Positions 26,438-53,092 of a stretch of DNA of 64,000 nt are shown here, piece by piece. Position 1 is the first letter of the stretch, and each line of letters begins with the position of its first letter. The notes under the pieces are model-generated. The model was not told where the DNA came from. It was given only the letters and a program-made list of their open reading frames with translations, and ran no database searches. The translations under genes and the position numbers were made by a program. The DNA lies in the NCBI GenBank assembly GCA_049297775.1, contig JBAQUX010000017.1:21337-85336 (forward strand), in the 5' to 3' direction. The DNA is from Minisyncoccia bacterium (GTDB taxonomy: Bacteria; Patescibacteriota; Minisyncoccia; Phycocordibacterales; UBA2100).

Positions 26438-28150
26438 CTACGATAACATACTCACGAGCCGCAACTCATCGTATGTATACGCACCCTTAAAGTGATCGAA
26501 CACAGGTTGTAGTTTTGAATCGTCTGTATCCTTAATAACTTTAATAATCTGCGGAAGCGCATCTTGCACTCGTTCTGGGAGAAGTGCGAGCACAGTATCG
26601 CGTTCAATTTTTTGTTGCATGTATAAATCAAACACATGTGAACAGATGGTGCCAACAGTAAGACCTCGCTCAGCTGAAATCTCTGCAAGTGACATCCCCT
26701 TCTGTATGCGTGCAAGTGTTTCATCTTTTGTGGTAACTGCACTTTTTTTCACTCCCTTTTTTTTCTTTATCTGAACCCCACCTTCCGGCTTTCCACCGCA
26801 CGCACGCACAAAGGCATCGACGAGTTTCGTGTGCTCATCATTATTCATTCCTTCAAATAACACGCGCGCTTCGGCTGAAAGCAGTTTAAATTGTGTGTCT
26901 TGCGCATACATATCTGCATGCAACAAAAGTGCCTGTTCGTTTATACCAATAATGTACAACTGGGAGAGTGATGTGACACGCGATAACGCAACGTATCCTT
27001 GCCCATATTCAAAAGTTCGCGACAAATCTATTACTGCTCCGGAGAGTGTCATGCCCTGGCTTTTGTGTATCGTAATTGCCCATGCAAGTCGTAGTGGGAT
27101 TTGTGTTATGCGTGCCAAAACTTTTCCGCCATCAGATAGTGTCCACTCTACAGGCACCGCAGTAATCGTTGTTCCACCAACAGTTTTGACTTCGGGATAC
27201 CCATGCGCATTAAATCCAGTTACCTCACCGGTAGTGCCATTTACATACGCACCATCGAGGTCATTTTTTGTAAACATAACACGTGCCCCTACCTTGAGTG
27301 TCAGCACTTCAGGTGAGAGGCACCCTTTCTTAAGAGATAACACGAGAGCATCGCTTCCTCTATCTGTCATTAAGAACGACTCTGATTGTTCAGTGATTTT
27401 TGCAAGCCGTGCGTTATTTACAGAATCTACAGAATCGTTGTGTGTATACAAATGAGGAACATCTGTTGGCACTGCATCACCACTCACCATTCTTGTCTGA
27501 AGAATTTCTAACGCAGCATCTGTTGATGCGCTCTTTCTTAAATTACGCAGTAGTGTAAATAATTCTGTATCACTTTGTCTATGTTGTTCGTGCAAATAAC
27601 ACACGATTGGATTCAACTCTGTCCACGATTTTGATCTAAAGGCAAAGGGTATTTTTGGTTCGTCATCATATTCCATATCAACACCGTCTTCAATTGATTC
27701 GTACGAACGACGCACGATGGGTGGTAATTGAAAAAAGTCGCCAACAAGCACAATTTGTATACCTCCAAATGGAATTTCGCGCTGTTTAACCGCACGGCAC
27801 ACAGTATCAACCATGGTAAGCGTTGCATCAGACAGCATGGATATCTCATCAATAACGAGCACATGCGTTTCTGCGATACGTCTGAATACTTTTTCTCGTG
27901 TAAGAATGGCTTCAATATCATATTCGGTAAGAAATTTTCTTATACCGATACCACTCCATGCGTGTATAGTCATTCCCCCGACGTGTGTTGCCGCAATTCC
28001 GGTTGATGCAGTAATTGCTGGCTCGATGCCGTGCGCACGCAACCATGCAATATACTGATTTACCACAAATGTCTTTCCACTTCCTGGCTCTCCAGTCAAA
28101 AAAACATGGGCACCTGTTTGGAGTACCTGTAGTGCAGTTGTCTGTAACAT
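26438..28150 (-). CDS. Pif1/RecD-family ATP-dependent DNA helicase with C-terminal HTH domain
   Basis: Walker A GEPGSGKT, Walker B VLVIDEISM, Pif1-type motifs (VLVGDFFQLPPI), C-terminal helix-turn-helix (SLAEISAERGLTVGTICSHV). Confidence 0.8.
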   Translation of the reverse strand: MLQTTALQVLQTGAHVFLTGEPGSGKTFVVNQYIAWLRAHGIEPAITASTGIAATHVGGMTIHAWSGIGIRKFLTEYDIEAILTREKVFRRIAETHVLVIDEISMLSDATLTMVDTVCRAVKQREIPFGGIQIVLVGDFFQLPPIVRRSYESIEDGVDMEYDDEPKIPFAFRSKSWTELNPIVCYLHEQHRQSDTELFTLLRNLRKSASTDAALEILQTRMVSGDAVPTDVPHLYTHNDSVDSVNNARLAKITEQSESFLMTDRGSDALVLSLKKGCLSPEVLTLKVGARVMFTKNDLDGAYVNGTTGEVTGFNAHGYPEVKTVGGTTITAVPVEWTLSDGGKVLARITQIPLRLAWAITIHKSQGMTLSGAVIDLSRTFEYGQGYVALSRVTSLSQLYIIGINEQALLLHADMYAQDTQFKLLSAEARVLFEGMNNDEHTKLVDAFVRACGGKPEGGVQIKKKKGVKKSAVTTKDETLARIQKGMSLAEISAERGLTVGTICSHVFDLYMQQKIERDTVLALLPERVQDALPQIIKVIKDTDDSKLQPVFDHFKGAYTYDELRLVSMLS

Positions 28151-28180: not shown

Positions 28181-28906
28181 TTATTCAAGCAAATACACAG
28201 CGCGCACAGTAAGCATAACGTCTTTCTCACGAGTAGAAGTATCGTATTCACCATAATCGGAAACTGCGGTTGCGTTTGGCGCGAGTACTTGCACGACGCC
28301 ACTTGATGCACTTTTCATTTTACCCACCTTTTGTTCCATAGAGCCAGCAAGTTCTTGAGCTCGTTTTTGAGCATCTTTTACTGCCTCGCCAATAAGTCGA
28401 ATACGCATCTCAGGAAGTGTAGAGATAAGATACTCCGGAGTTCGTGCTGTAAAACGTATTCCCTCTTGCGCAAGTACAAGCGTGTTTTGGGAAACTGTTT
28501 CGACACGTGCAACATCTTTCGTTTCTATAGTAACAGTTTGCCGAACTGATGTTTTTCGTATTTGGTTTTCTCCAGAACCAGTATAGTAGTCACTGGTACT
28601 AATTGGCGACGTGGTAATCTCTTCTGGTTTAAATCCATTGAGCGCAGAGTATTTCTTTACTTTAGCAGTGTCTTCGGCAACCCCTTCATAGCCCTTAACT
28701 ACAGCACCTTCTTCAACAATACGTTCTACATCAATACTCCACTTCGCGCTATCAGACATGACGCGCTCCTTTGTAGATCCGGTCACACTCAGTGTGTTAT
28801 CGAGCGCATGTACAGAGTAAAACGCATATGCACCAACACAAGACGCAAGTAGTATCGAGATGCCTATGATAAAAGCTGAAAGTGGCTGCTGAACGTTAGT
28901 ATTCAT
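28181..28906 (-). CDS. SIMPL-domain (BP26/OMP28-like, DUF541) protein
   Basis: N-terminal TM/signal and overall SIMPL-family pattern. Confidence 0.65.
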   Translation of the reverse strand: MNTNVQQPLSAFIIGISILLASCVGAYAFYSVHALDNTLSVTGSTKERVMSDSAKWSIDVERIVEEGAVVKGYEGVAEDTAKVKKYSALNGFKPEEITTSPISTSDYYTGSGENQIRKTSVRQTVTIETKDVARVETVSQNTLVLAQEGIRFTARTPEYLISTLPEMRIRLIGEAVKDAQKRAQELAGSMEQKVGKMKSASSGVVQVLAPNATAVSDYGEYDTSTREKDVMLTVRAVYLLE

Positions 28907-28930: not shown

Positions 28931-30058
28931 TTAGTGTGCATGGCTATGCGCATGTCCGTGCCCCGCATGATTTCCTGATTTTCTTCCTTTAAGGAAATAG
29001 ACCGCAAGCGCGGTAGTAACCGGTACCGCCACAATAAGCCCGAGAGACCCGACGACTGAACGAACAATTTCCGTAGCAAACACTTCCATATTTATGATGT
29101 TGAGTGTAGCGAGTCCGCCTTGGAAGAAAAGGAGCAGTAGTGGTAACGATGCGCCGGTATACGCAAGCACAAGCGTATTCACTAGAGCGGCGACGTGTGC
29201 GCGTCCTACAGTAAGTGCGCGTGAATATACAGCCCTACGAGATAGTGATGGGTCAGTTGCATACAGCTCCTCCACCACAGCAACCTGTGTGGCGGCGATA
29301 TCGTCGAGCACACCGAGAGAGCCAATAATAAATCCTGCGAGGAGCAAACCAAACATATCGAGTTGACCCATTGAGCCCAAATTCAGGTACGCAGCTTCTT
29401 CTGAAGCCATGCCGGTTAATCGAGTACTATATGCAAACGCATACGAAAGTACTCCCGTAAACATAACGGCAATACTCGTACCAGCAAACGCAATACATGA
29501 CGACATGCGGATACCGTACGTAGCAAAAATTGCTACGAACAAAATTCCAGAAGCAACTGCAGTACTCGTCAGTATTGGCGAATATCCCGCAAGAAGCATT
29601 GGGATAAGCACAAAAACAATTGCAAGAAGACTTACGAGAAGTGCTATAAGTGAACGTAATCCTTGCATGCCACCAAAAGCAACAACGATTATGGCAAATA
29701 TCCCGAGTAAGAAGTAAATTGATGTACGTCTGTTATAGTCAAAAACGTTATACAATTTCTTTCCTGAAATATCTTGCAAACTATTTATAAAGAACGTATC
29801 ACCGGCACGAAGTTGAATGTAATCATTTTTAAACTGGACCTCCTCACCAGCCTCTGGCCCAGACATGATGCGCACTTTTAGTTCCTGCGTGGGGTACCCC
29901 GTACCATCTATGAGTGCGGTCGTGTCTGATGAAACTACCTCGAGCACTTTTGCGCTCCATGTTCCCTGCACATCATCATGCAATTCCTGCGCTGATGCGG
30001 GCGTGACCCAGAGACTCAGAAAAGCAAACGTAATGATTAGCGAGCGCATTTTGTACAT
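28931..30058 (-). CDS. YibE/F-family membrane protein with His-rich C-terminal tail (GNHAGHGHAHSHAH)
   Basis: Signal peptide, extracytoplasmic domain, then about 7 TM helices typical of YibE/F; metal-binding His tail. Confidence 0.7.
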   Translation of the reverse strand: MYKMRSLIITFAFLSLWVTPASAQELHDDVQGTWSAKVLEVVSSDTTALIDGTGYPTQELKVRIMSGPEAGEEVQFKNDYIQLRAGDTFFINSLQDISGKKLYNVFDYNRRTSIYFLLGIFAIIVVAFGGMQGLRSLIALLVSLLAIVFVLIPMLLAGYSPILTSTAVASGILFVAIFATYGIRMSSCIAFAGTSIAVMFTGVLSYAFAYSTRLTGMASEEAAYLNLGSMGQLDMFGLLLAGFIIGSLGVLDDIAATQVAVVEELYATDPSLSRRAVYSRALTVGRAHVAALVNTLVLAYTGASLPLLLLFFQGGLATLNIINMEVFATEIVRSVVGSLGLIVAVPVTTALAVYFLKGRKSGNHAGHGHAHSHAH

Positions 30059-30453
30059 AGGCCAAAAAATTCTAATGAGTGACTAGTAATAACTTTGAAC
30101 TTTTGCGATTCAATTCGGGCTTTCTTTAATACTGTTTCTGAGATGCACGAATCCACTTCTTCTCGCACACCACAGCCACTGCACGTCACATGATGATGGT
30201 GATGAGTCTGATACTCAAAAAAGGCTTTACCTTGTCTAAAATCTGCTTGGTAAACGATACCTTTTTCTACTAATTGTTTTAAAACTCGATACAGGGTTAC
30301 GTAATTTGCCTGTGAACCTACTTTTTTTTCAATACTATCAATTGAGCATGGACCATGTGTATCCATAAGTACACAAAGAACCGCGAGTCTACTTTTCGTC
30401 ACCGAAAGACCTGCGCGCGAAAGTATTATTTCTGCTTGTTCGGATGAATTCAT
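30037..30453 (-). CDS. zur: Fur-family metalloregulator, probably Zur
   Basis: Winged-helix N-terminus, HHHHH and CxxC..CxxC metal sites; zinc-transporter neighbours and palindromic boxes in the upstream region. Confidence 0.78.
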   Translation of the reverse strand: MNSSEQAEIILSRAGLSVTKSRLAVLCVLMDTHGPCSIDSIEKKVGSQANYVTLYRVLKQLVEKGIVYQADFRQGKAFFEYQTHHHHHVTCSGCGVREEVDSCISETVLKKARIESQKFKVITSHSLEFFGLCTKCAR

Positions 30454-30495
30454 AGGAAAAGTGTACCATATTAATATACTACATTTTTTTCTAAA

Positions 30496-30510
30496 TGCAA
30501 TTTAGTTGCA
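30496..30510. promoter_or_regulatory. Candidate Zur/Fur box 1 (TGCAAtttagTTGCA)
   Basis: Inverted repeat in the divergent zur / 30569 intergenic region. Confidence 0.45.
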
Positions 30511-30532
30511 AATAAATACGATATATGTAATT

Positions 30533-30549
30533 ATGCAACTTAATTGCAT
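30533..30549. promoter_or_regulatory. Candidate Zur/Fur box 2 (ATGCAActtaaTTGCAT)
   Basis: 6-bp inverted repeat ATGCAA/TTGCAT with 5-nt spacer, 20 nt upstream of the 30569 start. Confidence 0.5.
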
Positions 30550-30568
30550 TATTAATTAATAAAAAAGC

Positions 30569-31930
30569 ATGCGTTCATTAATTTTCTTGTTTGCGTTAGG
30601 TATATATTTATTTACTGCAGACCATGTATCTGCGCAAACTACATGCAACTACACAAGTAACAGAACATTGGGGCTAGGGTCACGTGGAGTCGATGTATCT
30701 GTACTGCAAAATATACTTAACGATTCTTTAAGTGATGGCGCTTCACCTCTTGCGGTTTCCGGGTATTATGGCTCAAAAACTCGACTGAGAGTAATTGAGT
30801 ACCAGAAAAAATTTCTTGGCATTTCTGTCTCAAACAGTTATGGCATTGTAGGTCCTAGAACAAGAGATCACTTGAAGAAATCCTGTGCATTAGCGGCGAC
30901 ATCAGTACAACTCAAAAATAGTTCATCTGGTGCTCAGGGTGAAACACCACACGGGGTCCGAGTGACGCAACAACATATTTCTGAAGGATTACTTCCCCCT
31001 GGAGCTTTGAGAGTCCCCTTTAACAAGGTTGCAATTACTTCAACAAATGAAGCCGTATCGGTTTCAAAAATTAAAATTGTACGCGCAGGGGTTGCAGCAG
31101 ACGGCATCTTTGAAAGTATTGTCATCCTCGATCATGAAGGCAACCCAATTTCAGACGAGAAAATCTTAACCGCAAATCATGATGCTGTCATACCGGTTGA
31201 CCTAACAATTAACGCTGGCAGTGAGGTAATAGTGATGGTTGCTGGGAACATTTCAAGTGAACTCACGGATTTTAGAGGTCAAAGACCAGAGTTGCATATA
31301 CAATCCATAGAAAGTACATCACAGATAGATACTCCATTCCCGCTACTTGGTACCACACATCTTGTTGTTGACTCCTTGAGCATCGGATCTCTTGACGCAT
31401 CACTTGCGGGAGAAGACCCTTCTTCTGACAGAACGATGTACATACATGACCCTAGAACAATATTCTCTGCCATACGTCTCACTGCTCGCAGTGCAGAGGA
31501 TATAATTCTAACGTCAATTTCGTGGGAGCAGAATGGTACCGCGAGCAGTGAAGATATTACAGACGTGGAAATTGTCATTGAGGGGCAAAATTTTGCAACT
31601 ACAAAAAATGGCAGGGAGTATTCTGCCGACGTTGGAGAAATTAAAATACAAAAAGGTCGTTCTATAGTGGCACAGATTCGAGGCGCTTTTACAGGAACCG
31701 GATCTGCGAGAACGGTAAAATTTGATATTGCAGGAAGTGATGCTATCGTTGCACGAGGATCGAGCTATAAGTTCCTTGTGCCCACACAGGCCTCAAGTAA
31801 TACAAGCACTTCAGGAAACTCAGTATTTCTTACTTCAGATGGCACAAGTGACGGCGACGCTCTCGAGCCGTTTTTTAGTGGCTCGCTGGTCACAATCAAT
31901 CCTGGCTCATTTAATTCAATATCAAAATAA
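30569..31930 (+). CDS. Secreted protein with N-terminal peptidoglycan-binding (PG_binding_1-like) domain and large beta-rich C-terminal part
   Basis: Signal peptide; GSRGVDVSVLQNILN...GYYGSKTRLRVIEYQKKFLGIS..GIVGPRT matches the PGBD repeat pattern; sits behind the Zur boxes. Confidence 0.65.
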   Translation: MRSLIFLFALGIYLFTADHVSAQTTCNYTSNRTLGLGSRGVDVSVLQNILNDSLSDGASPLAVSGYYGSKTRLRVIEYQKKFLGISVSNSYGIVGPRTRDHLKKSCALAATSVQLKNSSSGAQGETPHGVRVTQQHISEGLLPPGALRVPFNKVAITSTNEAVSVSKIKIVRAGVAADGIFESIVILDHEGNPISDEKILTANHDAVIPVDLTINAGSEVIVMVAGNISSELTDFRGQRPELHIQSIESTSQIDTPFPLLGTTHLVVDSLSIGSLDASLAGEDPSSDRTMYIHDPRTIFSAIRLTARSAEDIILTSISWEQNGTASSEDITDVEIVIEGQNFATTKNGREYSADVGEIKIQKGRSIVAQIRGAFTGTGSARTVKFDIAGSDAIVARGSSYKFLVPTQASSNTSTSGNSVFLTSDGTSDGDALEPFFSGSLVTINPGSFNSISK

Positions 31931-31940
31931 AAAATATCAT

Positions 31941-32762
31941 ATGACTGAATTTCTAACTACGTACGGATACGTACTACTCGCCGGACTTGTTCTGTTAGCC
32001 CCGACACTGGTCGGAGTACTATTTGGCAGTGCGCGAATTCAGAAATTTTTGCAAAGCCGAACACACACAATACTCGCCTTTTCTGTGGGCGTATATAGCG
32101 TTGTTGCATGGGGACTATTTTCAGAAGCATACGAACATATGCCGCTTCTACATGTACTTGGAGCAAGCTTAGGTGCTTTTCTCTTTTTAGAAATTCTTAT
32201 GCGCCTGTTAAGTAACACCCACCATCACCACCACAGCGACGGACACGACCACGAGCACGGCCCTGTAGATGCACGCGCAATGCTCATCTCCGACTCAGTA
32301 CATAATGTTACTGACGGACTATTGCTCGTACCTGCATTTGCCGTAAGTCCAATACTCGGTATTGCAACAACATTTAGTATATTTGCTCACGAATCAGTTC
32401 TCGAAACCGCAAAATACTTTGTACTTCGTGAAAGCGGGTACACACATGCACAGGCAATTGCTCGTGGGTTTTTTGCAGGATGCACCGTATTTATTGGTAT
32501 TGCGCTCGCGCTCTTTATTTCAGGGAGCGATACACTTGAACCATGGCTTCTCGCTGCGGCAACTGGTTCAATTGTATATGTATTACTACGCGACCTACTT
32601 CCAGACGTCTTCTTTCATACCTCAGAGGAAGAATCCTACACGAAAACACTCATAGCACTCATTCTAGGCGTAGTAACATTACTTGCAGTGCAAAGCATGC
32701 TCCCGCACGAACACGAATCTGAACATGCAGAGACAGGTGAAGCAGTGCACTTACTTGAGTAA
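31941..32762 (+). CDS. zupT: ZIP-family zinc transporter (ZupT-like)
   Basis: 8-TM ZIP topology, His-rich loop HHHHHSDGHDHEHG, conserved HESVLE motif; start at MTEFL (ATG 31941); the longer ORF from 31722 overlaps the upstream gene. Confidence 0.8.
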   Translation: MTEFLTTYGYVLLAGLVLLAPTLVGVLFGSARIQKFLQSRTHTILAFSVGVYSVVAWGLFSEAYEHMPLLHVLGASLGAFLFLEILMRLLSNTHHHHHSDGHDHEHGPVDARAMLISDSVHNVTDGLLLVPAFAVSPILGIATTFSIFAHESVLETAKYFVLRESGYTHAQAIARGFFAGCTVFIGIALALFISGSDTLEPWLLAAATGSIVYVLLRDLLPDVFFHTSEEESYTKTLIALILGVVTLLAVQSMLPHEHESEHAETGEAVHLLE

Positions 32763-52665: not shown

Positions 52666-52897
52666 AATTTTAGTCCCTATATGATAAAATAACCAGTACG
52701 CCCTGGAAGGGGTGGCACCTAACCCTATTCATCTCACGATGAGCAGGTATGGTGCACAGTCGCAAAAAGCATAGAAAACCCGTCATTGGGGTGCTTTTTG
52801 CGCCGTACAGGGAAACTTGTATGAGGGAGAAATCCCTACCTTCAGTGGCGGGTTTTTTGAGTGCCACGTTTTGCTTATCAATTTTCATTACAAAAAC

Positions 52898-53092
52898 ATG
52901 AATATAAAATGCGCACTCATTGCATTCATTGCCTACCTGGTACTCCTTATGATCGTAGTCACCTCTGGCATGGCGCATGGATCATCCGACATCGTAAGTA
53001 TGTTACTTGTTCTGGTTGCGATAGGAGTATATAAGCTGTGCGCAGTATACGAACCTAATGACAAGCAAGAGGAGAAAACAATCAAAGAATAA
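52898..53092 (+). CDS. Small 2-TM membrane protein
   Basis: MNIKCALIAFIAYLVLLMIVV.. start at ATG 52898 inside the ORF 52817..53092. Confidence 0.35.
   Translation: MNIKCALIAFIAYLVLLMIVVTSGMAHGSSDIVSMLLVLVAIGVYKLCAVYEPNDKQEEKTIKE

Follow-up and report, generated by a model that had tools for sequence, protein, structure and literature searches.

A predicted zinc-starvation locus in a Minisyncoccia bacterium links a Fur-family regulator and a ZIP importer with YibE/F and wall-anchored beta-sandwich proteins

In the model Zur regulons, a Fur-family repressor acts at palindromes that lie over the promoters of zinc importers, as for ycdHI-yceA/znuABC and yciC/zagA in B. subtilis and znuABC and zinT in E. 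coli (PMC6103462). Cell-wall proteins under Zur control are also known, namely ShyB of V. cholerae (PMC6381278) and ZrlA of A. baumannii (PMC7812711). The locus described here likewise combines a Fur-family regulator with palindromes at the promoter of a predicted importer, and the regulator gene stands in its own operon beside transporter genes. Furthermore, an AdcA/YcdH-type binding protein is encoded in related genomes, COG0523 genes with the same box are found in other lineages and, as with ShyB and ZrlA, a cell-wall-associated protein appears to be controlled by a zinc-starvation regulator. In contrast, the operator, TGCAA-N5-TTGCA, is unlike the E. coli Zur motif TRWNAYRWTATAWYRTNWCA (PMC6103462), the regulator lacks the sensing-site cysteine of characterised Zur proteins, and neither YibE/F nor a peptidoglycan-anchored beta-sandwich protein is a described member of the model regulons. 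The kind of regulon is already known; two of its members are uncharacterised.

The window, a 64-kb stretch of DNA from an ultra-small (CPR/Minisyncoccia) bacterium, contains two divergent operons, zur-yibEF on the minus strand and the gene of a 453-aa protein followed by a ZIP gene on the plus strand, which are separated by a 115-bp intergenic region (Table 1). The four genes form a metal homeostasis cluster in which zinc is most likely the metal. A preliminary description of this DNA had the genes and their coordinates right, and Pfam backs all four of its gene calls (YibE/F, Fur family, PG_binding_1 with an unassigned body, and ZIP). The two His-rich stretches that it reported, in the YibE/F tail (GNHAGHGHAHSHAH) and in a ZIP loop (HHHHHSDGHDHEHG), are both present.

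Table 1. Coordinates of the genes, operator boxes and inferred promoters in the window
Feature	Position	Strand	Details
SIMPL/DUF541 secreted protein	28181..28906	-	PF04402, 72 bits; 24 nt downstream of yibEF
YibE/F-family membrane protein, 375 aa	28931..30058	-	PF07907, E 4e-65
Fur-family metalloregulator, inferred Zur, 138 aa	30037..30453	-	PF01475; first gene of zur-yibEF operon
Inferred zur promoter	30473..30500	-	TTGCAT (30500-30495, half of box 1), 16-nt spacer, TATATT (30478-30473)
Operator box 1, ATGCAATTTAGTTGCA (30495-30510) / ATGCAAtttagTTGCAA	30495..30511	.	core TGCAA-N5-TTGCA at 30496-30510, exact match
Inferred promoter, 453-aa/ZIP operon	30506..30534	+	TTGCAA (30506-30511), 17-nt spacer, extended -10 TGtAATTAT (30526-34)
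Operator box 2, ATGCAACTTAATTGCAT / ATGCAActtaaTTGCAT	30533..30549	.	core TGCAA-N5-TTGCA, exact match
453-aa secreted, wall-anchored protein	30569..31930	+	signal-peptide-like N-terminus; PG_binding_1
ZIP-family metal importer, 273 aa	31941..32762	+	PF02535, 74.2 bits vs 35.1

The YibE/F protein matches PF07907 over profile positions 1-240 of 241 (220 bits) and has an N-terminal signal/extracytoplasmic segment, with its His-rich tail encoded at about 28934-28975. Because zur overlaps the start of yibEF by 22 nt, the two genes are probably co-transcribed. YibE/F genes lie in or beside the zur operon in five related loci (L006, L007, L036, L136 and L139), and the homologue in L012 also ends in a His-rich tail. 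Membership of the downstream SIMPL gene in this unit is uncertain; a SIMPL neighbour is also found in L012, 690 nt from a YibE/F remnant, and a promoter-like site ahead of the gene (28940-28913, minus strand) suggests that it may be transcribed alone.

On the other strand, the ZIP gene starts at the ATG at 31941, not at 31722 where the longer ORF begins. It follows the 453-aa gene after 10 nt and is probably co-transcribed with it; its His-rich loop is encoded at 32220-32261. The protein had been called ZupT, but it falls far below the curated ZupT equivalog (NF003243, 27.4 bits vs a cutoff of 252), and by its sequence we class it as a ZIP-family member, probably not a ZupT orthologue. A ZIP gene adjoins a homologue of the 453-aa gene in seven other loci (L002, L004, L005, L009, L012, L137 and L139).

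The regulator matches the FUR family (PF01475) over aa 14-129 of 138, with 63.7 bits against a gathering score of 23.1. It contains E80, H84-H88, a CSGC motif (91-94), H125 and a CTKC motif (133-136). Eleven related regulators all keep the two CxxC pairs of the structural Cys4 zinc site, C91-x2-C94 and C133-x2-C136. However, many Fur and PerR proteins share these pairs, so the site does not discriminate for Zur. The name Zur, as given in the preliminary description, lacks the backing of curated models, since the Zur equivalog NF008646 gave 34.5 bits against a cutoff of 167 and the best NCBIfam scores were those of Fur (62.6) and PerR (56.5), all below their cutoffs. The closest sequence matches in the PDB were gamma-proteobacterial Fur proteins, followed by M. 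tuberculosis FurB/Zur. In a phmmer alignment to the latter (2o03), tyrosines (Y68 and Y81) stand in place of the sensing-site residues, which we take to be D62 and C76, and the Fur-like E80 is kept. The regulator is not assignable to Zur from its sequence alone, and its assignment to zinc comes from gene context: orthologues with 32-39% identity head zur-znuACB or zur-zip operons.

The two inverted repeats that had been reported between zur and the 453-aa gene are present, and each carries the exact core TGCAA-N5-TTGCA. These are the only two exact matches in the 64-kb window, where 0.26 would be expected and 4 of 100 shuffles reached two; both lie within the one divergent region, 38 bp apart. 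Aligned as direct repeats they share 88% identity, and they can also be read as an inverted pair of 17 nt. With one mismatch allowed, five matches were found against 5.19 expected. The three additional ones, at 2235, 47524 and 55893, are all inside long ORFs and their number fits chance, so no other gene in the window carries a box, and this search gave no second regulon target within the 64 kb. Box 2 precedes the ATG of the 453-aa gene by 21-35 nt and covers the end of the predicted -10 element and transcription start. The two halves of box 1 double as -35-like hexamers for both divergent promoters. Both promoter positions are inferred from sequence; that of the 453-aa/ZIP operon scores 8/12, and a sigma-70 consensus scan of the window listed neither. 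To our knowledge, the box also differs from that of B. subtilis Zur, and a full-text literature search linking TGCAA-N5-TTGCA to a zinc uptake regulator found nothing.

Six other Parcubacteria-type loci carry TGCAA-N5-TTGCA directly upstream of a homologue of the 453-aa gene, with invariant half-sites and varying N5 spacers; the encoded homologues are 35-38% identical where measured (L006, L007, L097 and L137). In five of these loci (L006, L007, L097, L136 and L139), two boxes stand 51-56 bp from each other, the second in L136 with one mismatch, and enclose a TTGAC(A/G)-N15-18-TAnnnT promoter that is clearer than that of the window. A single box is found in L137. The associated operons are zur-znuA-znuC-znuB-yibEF (L006 and L136), zur-znuACB (L007), zur-zip-yibEF (L139) and zur-zip-453-aa homologue (L137), and a zur-yibEF operon is found in L036. 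Because invariant half-sites recur before zinc genes in other genomes, the two palindromes are supported as predicted operators of the adjacent Fur-family regulator. The preliminary description had made its reading depend on such recurrence at other zinc genes, which was seen in other genomes; in the source genome, the 64-kb window was covered. In four loci (L002, L004, L005 and L009), a ZIP gene adjoins the 453-aa homologue with no fur nearby, and no box was found with two mismatches allowed upstream of the homologue (nor, in L009, upstream of zip). Five further short-form loci have no zinc neighbour. Given these boxless and unlinked loci, Zur control is not universal for the 453-aa family.

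The 453-aa protein begins with a signal peptide (about aa 1-23), followed by a PG_binding_1 domain (PF01471, aa 39-102; 28.2 bits vs a cutoff of 23, fold confirmed) that is flanked by a Cys26...Cys106 pair. A low-confidence linker (about aa 113-125) leads to a beta-rich body (aa 126-444), and no other Pfam match was found in the protein, as the preliminary description had it: a PG-binding N-terminus and an unassigned body. Structural modelling indicates that the body consists of tandem beta-sandwiches, probably cohesin/Ig-like, and is non-enzymatic, a fold class shared with adhesins and scaffolds. Its resemblance to known modules (2vo8, 6kgc, GH123 N-terminal domains, MSCRAMM CNA/FnBPA) is distant, with identities of 6-15% and low TM-scores of 0.2-0.3 for two-domain matches. 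Unlike cohesins and MSCRAMMs, the protein has no dockerin partner or known ligand, and it is anchored by PG_binding_1 instead of LPXTG or SLH. The protein represents the short form of a large family of CPR surface proteins that is dark to Pfam. Long forms of ~1,200 aa, whose N-terminal part has the complete 453-aa architecture, prevail in this family (94 of the 164 top representatives; 608 clusters at E<=1e-30). The short forms have a C-terminal motif of their own, SGNSVFLTSDGTSDGD...PFFSG (aa 415-438). Among 17 distinct loci of the short form, 12 have fur, ZIP, ZnuABC or YibE/F as neighbours; the orientations vary, and the surroundings are otherwise unrelated. The earlier view that such a protein is not a standard regulon member is right for the textbook Zur regulons; on the other hand, the family is a recurrent member in Parcubacteria-type genomes, and ShyB and ZrlA are precedents for cell-wall proteins under Zur control.

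What might this protein do? It was initially suggested to be a zinc scavenger, which would itself bind zinc and hand it to ZIP or ZnuA. The streptococcal Pht proteins (with AdcAII) and ZinT/YodA are surface or extracytoplasmic proteins that are encoded beside, and co-regulated with, a zinc importer, and the idea draws on this functional analogy. The 453-aa protein is extracytoplasmic and wall-anchored, its family is co-transcribed with or adjacent to ZIP in eight loci and lies behind predicted Zur boxes in seven, and an acidic loop specific to the short forms, TSDG(T/S)xDG(D/E), could bind a cation. However, all-carboxylate loops suggest Ca2+ rather than Zn2+, and a median pI of 4.7 is nothing unusual among secreted proteins. 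In Pht and ZinT, the zinc ligands are conserved His motifs, whereas the 453-aa protein has an unrelated fold and no body His or Cys conserved above about 67% in the family (only H204 reaches that value), nor any His motif of the His-triad type. Direct scavenging has thus gained no positive support, and we regard it as unlikely.

Alternatively, the protein could be an envelope-remodelling paralogue of the ~1,200-aa proteins, made under zinc limitation to alter the surface (host or partner adhesion, wall porosity) rather than to handle metal. The prevalence of long forms that contain its architecture, the adhesin/scaffold fold class and the conserved polar residues common to both forms (D283, E310, Q321, D329, R381 and D386) agree with this. 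The single ~1,200-aa paralogue whose neighbourhood was checked lies outside a zinc context. Against the remodelling view stands the tight pairing with ZIP, which is independent of orientation and persists even without fur or a box, and therefore suggests a functional tie with the transporter rather than general starvation signalling. Remodelling, too, appears improbable as the main role. We tentatively favour a non-enzymatic accessory of extracytoplasmic zinc uptake, a wall-bound module that may work with ZIP or ZnuABC.

The metal itself has to be considered as well, as the regulator could instead sense iron or manganese, like Fur, Mur or PerR, in a locus that handles those metals. Its best NCBIfam and PDB matches are to Fur and PerR, E80 is present while the Cys and Asp of the actinobacterial Zur sensing site are absent, and PF01297 and ZIP both include manganese and iron transporters; ZIP transporters are broad in specificity. 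In contrast, the linked genes encode binding proteins of the zinc type: that of L007 has a His-rich loop (GDEHEHEHEEDEH) and a three-His ligand pattern, and its best solved relatives are the zinc-binding YcdH of B. subtilis (E 7e-78) and AdcA of S. pneumoniae (5e-64), with manganese-binding proteins scoring far lower. Both the window ZIP and the window YibE/F carry His-rich segments, and no box was seen to adjoin a siderophore, ferritin, Feo or Mnt-type gene. In a scan of metagenomes, the double box was found at 120 loci, among which W-flanked boxes adjoin Fur-family genes (10 loci), ZIP (2), ZnuA (2), COG0523 GTPases (3), DUF1826 (1), a TonB-dependent receptor (1) and MerC-like genes (5). Genes of COG0523 and of DUF1826 are known to accompany Zur sites (PMC2770081), and the occurrence of the same box before them argues further against an iron or manganese sensor, which we consider distinctly improbable. 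Some of the loci are on Flavobacteriaceae-like contigs (Winogradskyella- and Psychroserpens-like L068, L077, L099 and others), where the double box of a predicted Zur has the same core and, as in the window, a spacing of 36-39 bp; a Fur-family gene and genes of zinc type lie beside it. These regulators differ from the window protein (21-25% identity, with extra Cys residues before the HxH motif), as do their targets (MerC-like, COG0523, DUF1826 and TonB-dependent receptor genes).

Two further alternatives have very little in their favour. In metagenomes, the double-box pattern also picks up many unrelated sequences, repeat arrays and GGGTGCAAT...ATTGCACCC sites among them, but invariant half-sites with variable spacers at the same promoter in seven genomes, strong enrichment beside Fur-family and zinc genes and an expectation of 0.26 boxes in the window make chance AT-rich symmetry, or the site of another factor, a highly improbable explanation. 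That the 453-aa protein is a Zur-controlled, metal-dependent peptidoglycan hydrolase, as had also been suggested, is equally hard to credit; ShyB and ZrlA are peptidoglycan peptidases, whereas this protein lacks a catalytic domain or fold, be it of the M15, M23, amidase, SleB or lytic transglycosylase type. Neither Pfam nor NCBIfam gave a catalytic match (the SleB model reached 18.7 bits vs 236.5, in the PG-binding part only), and a body-only model matched no hydrolase.

Taken as a whole, the locus probably serves a Minisyncoccia/Parcubacteria bacterium as a Zur-type regulon island for zinc starvation. The Fur-family repressor would bind the two 7-1-7-like palindromes (WWTGCAA-N5-TTGCAWW), probably as one dimer per box. 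The boxes lie over the -35 elements and the -10/start region. The metal-loaded regulator would shut off both zur-yibEF and the 453-aa/ZIP operon. When zinc falls, the repressor would leave, and the ZIP importer, the 453-aa protein and the His-tailed YibE/F would be made; YibE/F is probably a second transporter of metal or an accessory. The 453-aa protein would be exported, tied to peptidoglycan through its N-terminal PG_binding_1 domain and display its two cohesin/Ig-like beta-sandwiches. More speculatively, and with considerable doubt, the short-form proteins might represent a new class of partner for ZIP or ZnuABC in wall-bearing CPR bacteria, capturing zinc, a zinc-bearing ligand or a host surface without His ligands, with YibE/F (PF07907), an uncharacterised but widespread family, as a Zur-controlled zinc transporter or transporter accessory.

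The locus consists of two divergent gene pairs (see the table), with a Fur-family gene (zur) leading into yibEF on one side and the gene of a secreted 453-aa protein leading into a ZIP transporter gene on the other. The Fur-family gene and the start of yibEF overlap by 22 nt, and the ZIP gene starts 10 nt past the end of the 453-aa gene. The YibE/F protein has the C-terminus GNHAGHGHAHSHAH, and the ZIP protein carries the loop HHHHHSDGHDHEHG. Gene calls, Pfam matches and direct reading confirmed the coordinates and sequence features that the preliminary description had assigned to the locus. Within the 64-kb window the 453-aa protein has no paralogue, ZnuA is absent, and the Fur-family gene is the only one of its kind.

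Directly downstream of yibEF lies a gene for a secreted SIMPL/DUF541 protein with weak NCBIfam similarity to 'oxidative stress defense protein'; a SIMPL gene is also found near the YibE/F remnant of a related locus, L012. A promoter-like site sits just upstream of the window SIMPL gene, which may or may not be part of the zur-yibEF unit. The helicase gene upstream of the locus is unrelated to the finding. Elsewhere in the window, a full-length match to the LOOT RNA lies on the strand opposite a 102-aa ORF; the ORF is thus probably spurious.

Coordinates of features in the window and in related loci (L numbers) from other assemblies and metagenomes
Feature	Sequence	Position	Strand	Match or remark
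PIF1-like helicase, 570 aa	window	26438-28150	-	C-terminal HTH_40
SIMPL/DUF541 secreted protein	window	28181-28906	-
YibE/F gene, 375 aa	window	28931-30058	-	PF07907, E 4e-65
Fur-family gene, 138 aa	window	30037-30453	-	PF01475, 63.7 bits
Box core, first copy	window	30496-30510
Box core, second copy	window	30534-30548
453-aa gene	window	30569-31930	+
ZIP gene, 273 aa	window	31941-32762	+	PF02535, 74 bits
102-aa ORF	window	52670-52978	-
LOOT RNA	window	52716-52837	+	Rfam RF03000, 74.3 bits (gathering score 46.4)
Single exact box	L004	5117-5131
P-loop ATPase	L007	6345-7088	+
PG_binding_1 + PKD protein, 532 aa	L009	2195-3793	-
YibE/F-homologue junction	L012	4600-5260
P-loop ATPase	L036	3036-4022	+
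MerC-family gene	L068	3516-3929	-
PG_binding_1 + PKD protein, 532 aa	L137	6444-8042	-

The two inverted repeats previously proposed for the intergenic region between zur and the 453-aa gene are indeed present, both as exact copies of the core TGCAA-N5-TTGCA, and they are the only two in 64 kb, where 0.26 would be expected. Both lie inside the 115-bp stretch separating the two start codons, at a spacing of 38 bp that is tighter than in relatives. Copies with one mismatch occur elsewhere in the window at chance frequency, all within long ORFs. The boxes match one another as direct repeats (88% identity over 16 nt) and also form an inverted pair. Fur-family operators usually have a 7-1-7 layout, and each box can be read as an imperfect element of this kind (TGCAATT-T-AGTTGCA and TGCAACT-T-AATTGCA). 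Zur boxes of the 7-1-7 type are mentioned in the literature (PMC6103462).

Homologues of the 453-aa protein were followed into other assemblies, and a DNA-pattern scan was added. Boxes were found directly upstream of the homologue in six further loci (L006, L007, L097, L136, L137 and L139). All of these except L137 have the window's arrangement, in which the homologue and a Fur-family gene diverge, with two boxes that are here 51–56 bp apart; L137 has one box ahead of a zur-zip-homologue operon. In the five double-box loci the half-sites are those of the window, except at a single position of the second box in L136, and a good promoter, TTGAC(A/G)-N15-18-TA(T/G)nnT, lies between the boxes such that box 1 abuts the −35 and box 2 begins a few bases past the −10. 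The five spacer bases vary between loci. Because the half-sites are invariant in otherwise unalignable intergenic DNA, and proteins at box-bearing loci share only 31–39% identity, we read the box as a phylogenetic footprint and putative conserved operator. The half-sites of the window boxes may themselves serve as −35-like hexamers of both divergent promoters; judged visually and from the pattern in the related loci, the candidates are TTGCAA-17-TGtAATTAT on the plus strand and TTGCAT-16-TATATT on the minus strand. A sigma-70 consensus scan of the window listed no promoter in the divergent region, and neither assigned promoter was among its matches.

The distant homologue loci L001, L002, L004 and L005 lack the palindrome, and a scan allowing up to two mismatches found no box in the checked regions upstream of the homologue in these four or in L008, L009, L010, L135 and L138. 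A single exact box does occur in L004 just beyond the 3' end of ZIP, upstream of a minus-strand glycosyltransferase operon and with no fur gene near it; it could be a chance occurrence or a further target.

The NCBIfam Fur, PerR and Zur models all score far below their cutoffs for the window regulator, with Fur the best; among solved structures it is closest to the Fur proteins of enterobacteria and Vibrio, followed by M. tuberculosis FurB/Zur. It has two CxxC motifs, a five-His run and H125; Tyr occupies the positions of the sensing Asp and Cys of actinobacterial Zur, and the Fur-like Glu80 is kept. The regulator sequence by itself would leave the effector metal unsettled. Gene context favors zinc. 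Orthologous regulators lead zur-znuA-znuC-znuB(-yibEF) operons in L006, L007 and L136, and zur-zip(-yibEF) operons in L137 and L139. The binding protein of L007 has the loop GDEHEHEHEEDEH and a His-His-His ligand pattern; among solved structures it best matches the zinc proteins YcdH (E 7e-78) and AdcA (E 5e-64), whereas manganese binders reach only ~1e-24 to 1e-31. We consider it likely that the regulator is an autoregulated, Zur-type repressor controlling the importers, which at its two operators would cover the back-to-back promoters of its own operon and of the 453-aa/ZIP operon. If this regulatory part is right, zinc is very probably the effector. Such logic is that of a standard Zur regulon and is ordinary. 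No usable paper on Zur in Patescibacteria was found in the literature searched.

Scanning metagenomes for the double box gave at least 120 loci. Many were palindromes or repeats unrelated to the box (CACTGCAA...TTGCAGTG arrays, GGGTGCAAT...ATTGCACCC) and were set aside by a W-flank (A/T-flank) filter. The A/T-flanked boxes adjoin further Fur-family genes in at least 10 loci and MerC-like membrane proteins in at least five; among the matches listed, they also adjoin ZIP (L110, L124), ZnuA (L026, L060), COG0523 GTPases (L059, L079, L120), DUF1826 (L062) and a TonB-dependent receptor (L058). COG0523 and DUF1826 are recognized companions of Zur sites (PMC2770081). Several double-box contigs resemble flavobacterial DNA; Fur-family proteins of Winogradskyella share ~78% identity with the L068 regulator, whose clade is only 21–25% identical to the window regulator. 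The boxes recur on such contigs beside regulators this divergent, so TGCAA-N5-TTGCA is apparently used as an operator by distantly related Fur-family clades of two or more lineages, one CPR-type and one Flavobacteriaceae-like. In the library searched we found no paper tying the motif to the phrase 'zinc uptake regulator', which is weak evidence of absence.

In the Flavobacteriaceae-like loci L044, L068, L077, L099 and L129, the double box has a 36–39-bp spacing, as in the window, and adjoins the gene of a ~130-aa membrane protein of the MerC family (PF03203, E 1e-19); in L068, L077 and L099 that gene and the Fur-family gene diverge. The product is a candidate for a small, Zur-controlled protein of zinc uptake.

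The closest database protein to the 453-aa protein is 100% identical, comes from a Minisyncoccia bacterium and is named peptidoglycan-binding protein by NCBI, which places the organism in the candidate phyla radiation (CPR). A signal peptide is followed by a Cys-flanked PG_binding_1 domain (aa 39–102), a disordered linker and a predicted beta body of ~320 residues, in agreement with the beta-rich body noted in the preliminary description. The structure models are confident (pLDDT 84 at full length, 90 for the body alone), and the body alone resembles cohesins, CBM-like N-terminal domains of GH123/sialidases and tandem Ig-like adhesin/integrin domains. In an exhaustive profile search the family comprised 608 representative clusters at E≤1e-30. 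Long forms of ~1,150–1,250 aa make up most of it; they contain the whole 453-aa architecture N-terminally, then more, weaker sandwich repeats, with no Pfam domain besides PG_binding_1. The one long form whose neighborhood was looked up lies outside a zinc context. Gly, Pro and Phe account for most invariant residues of the family; among polar positions, D283, E310, W319, Q321, D329, R381 and D386 are conserved and common to short and long forms, and no body His or Cys is conserved above ~67% in the family alignment. A C-terminal motif, SGNSVFLTSDGTxDG(D/E)EGxPFFSG, is largely specific to short forms, and its acidic loop may be likened, as a lead only, to calcium-type loops. Net charge, pI and His content were uninformative between short and long forms.

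We compared the neighborhoods of 17 distinct short-form loci (the window, L001, L002 (= L003, L011), L004–L010, L012, L097 and L135–L139). A Zur box and fur gene lie directly upstream of the short form in 7 of the 17, ZIP is adjacent or in the divergent operon in 8, ZnuACB is in the divergent operon in 3, and YibE/F is in or beside the cluster in 6; five have none of these, two of them on contigs under 3 kb. Since ZIP accompanies the short form in every orientation (divergent, upstream or downstream of it) and in otherwise unrelated neighborhoods, some with neither fur gene nor box, the pairing points to a functional tie between the short form and the ZIP transporter itself, beyond shared regulation.

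Some neighborhoods hold further features. In L012, the closest relative of the window locus (identity 58% for SIMPL, 69% for YibE/F, 47% for ZIP), YibE/F aa 244–360 (minus strand) abut the final 64 aa of the 453-aa homologue. No zur gene and neither box is present, and the YibE/F N-terminus is missing along with most of the 453-aa gene; the junction is either a ~2.9-kb deletion orphaning ZIP or an assembly artefact. A CbiA/ParA/Mrp-type P-loop ATPase, absent from the window, follows the homologue in L007 and lies behind the double box, divergent from zur-yibEF, in L036. The two share GKGGSGK(S/T)T and then C-x-H-S motifs (28% identity, E 7e-20) and may represent a CooC-like metallochaperone belonging to the zinc regulon of CPR bacteria. 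Convergent with and just downstream of the homologue in L009 and L137 is a PG_binding_1 + PKD protein, another wall-anchored surface protein of the same neighborhood.

For the 453-aa protein, we tentatively prefer a non-enzymatic, wall-anchored binding module that helps ZIP- or ZnuABC-mediated uptake. Direct scavenging of zinc overlaps with this accessory role and seems unlikely; the ZIP pairing speaks for it, the lack of a well-conserved His or Cys in the body against it. Equally doubtful is a short paralogue of the major wall protein serving surface remodeling or adhesion; the architecture shared with the long forms speaks for this reading, the ZIP pairing against it. The metal-dependent peptidoglycan enzyme of the preliminary description did not hold up, as domain models and structure comparison of the predicted body found neither a hydrolase fold nor a catalytic domain, which makes a PG hydrolase highly improbable. 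With its His tail and its recurrent position at the end of zur operons, YibE/F probably transports a metal or assists a transporter; in the library searched, no paper was found on the function of YibE/F (PF07907) or its link to zinc.

Zur-controlled cell-wall proteins have precedents in V. cholerae ShyB (PMC6381278) and A. baumannii ZrlA (PMC7812711). As far as our tools show, the operator sequence TGCAA-N5-TTGCA and its use in CPR are new, as is the finding that a Pfam-dark surface-protein family and YibE/F recur as members of such a regulon. CPR/Patescibacteria account for a large part of bacterial diversity and have tiny genomes, and to our knowledge they have almost no experimentally grounded regulons. 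The locus offers a directly testable regulator-operator pair with a footprint clear in seven genomes, and an operator common to Parcubacteria and Flavobacteriaceae Fur-family regulators would be useful in metagenome regulon reconstruction. The context of the locus also gives functional leads for two "dark" families, YibE/F and the Pfam-less wall-anchored beta-sandwich family, which, with hundreds of clusters, is apparently a major component of the CPR surface.
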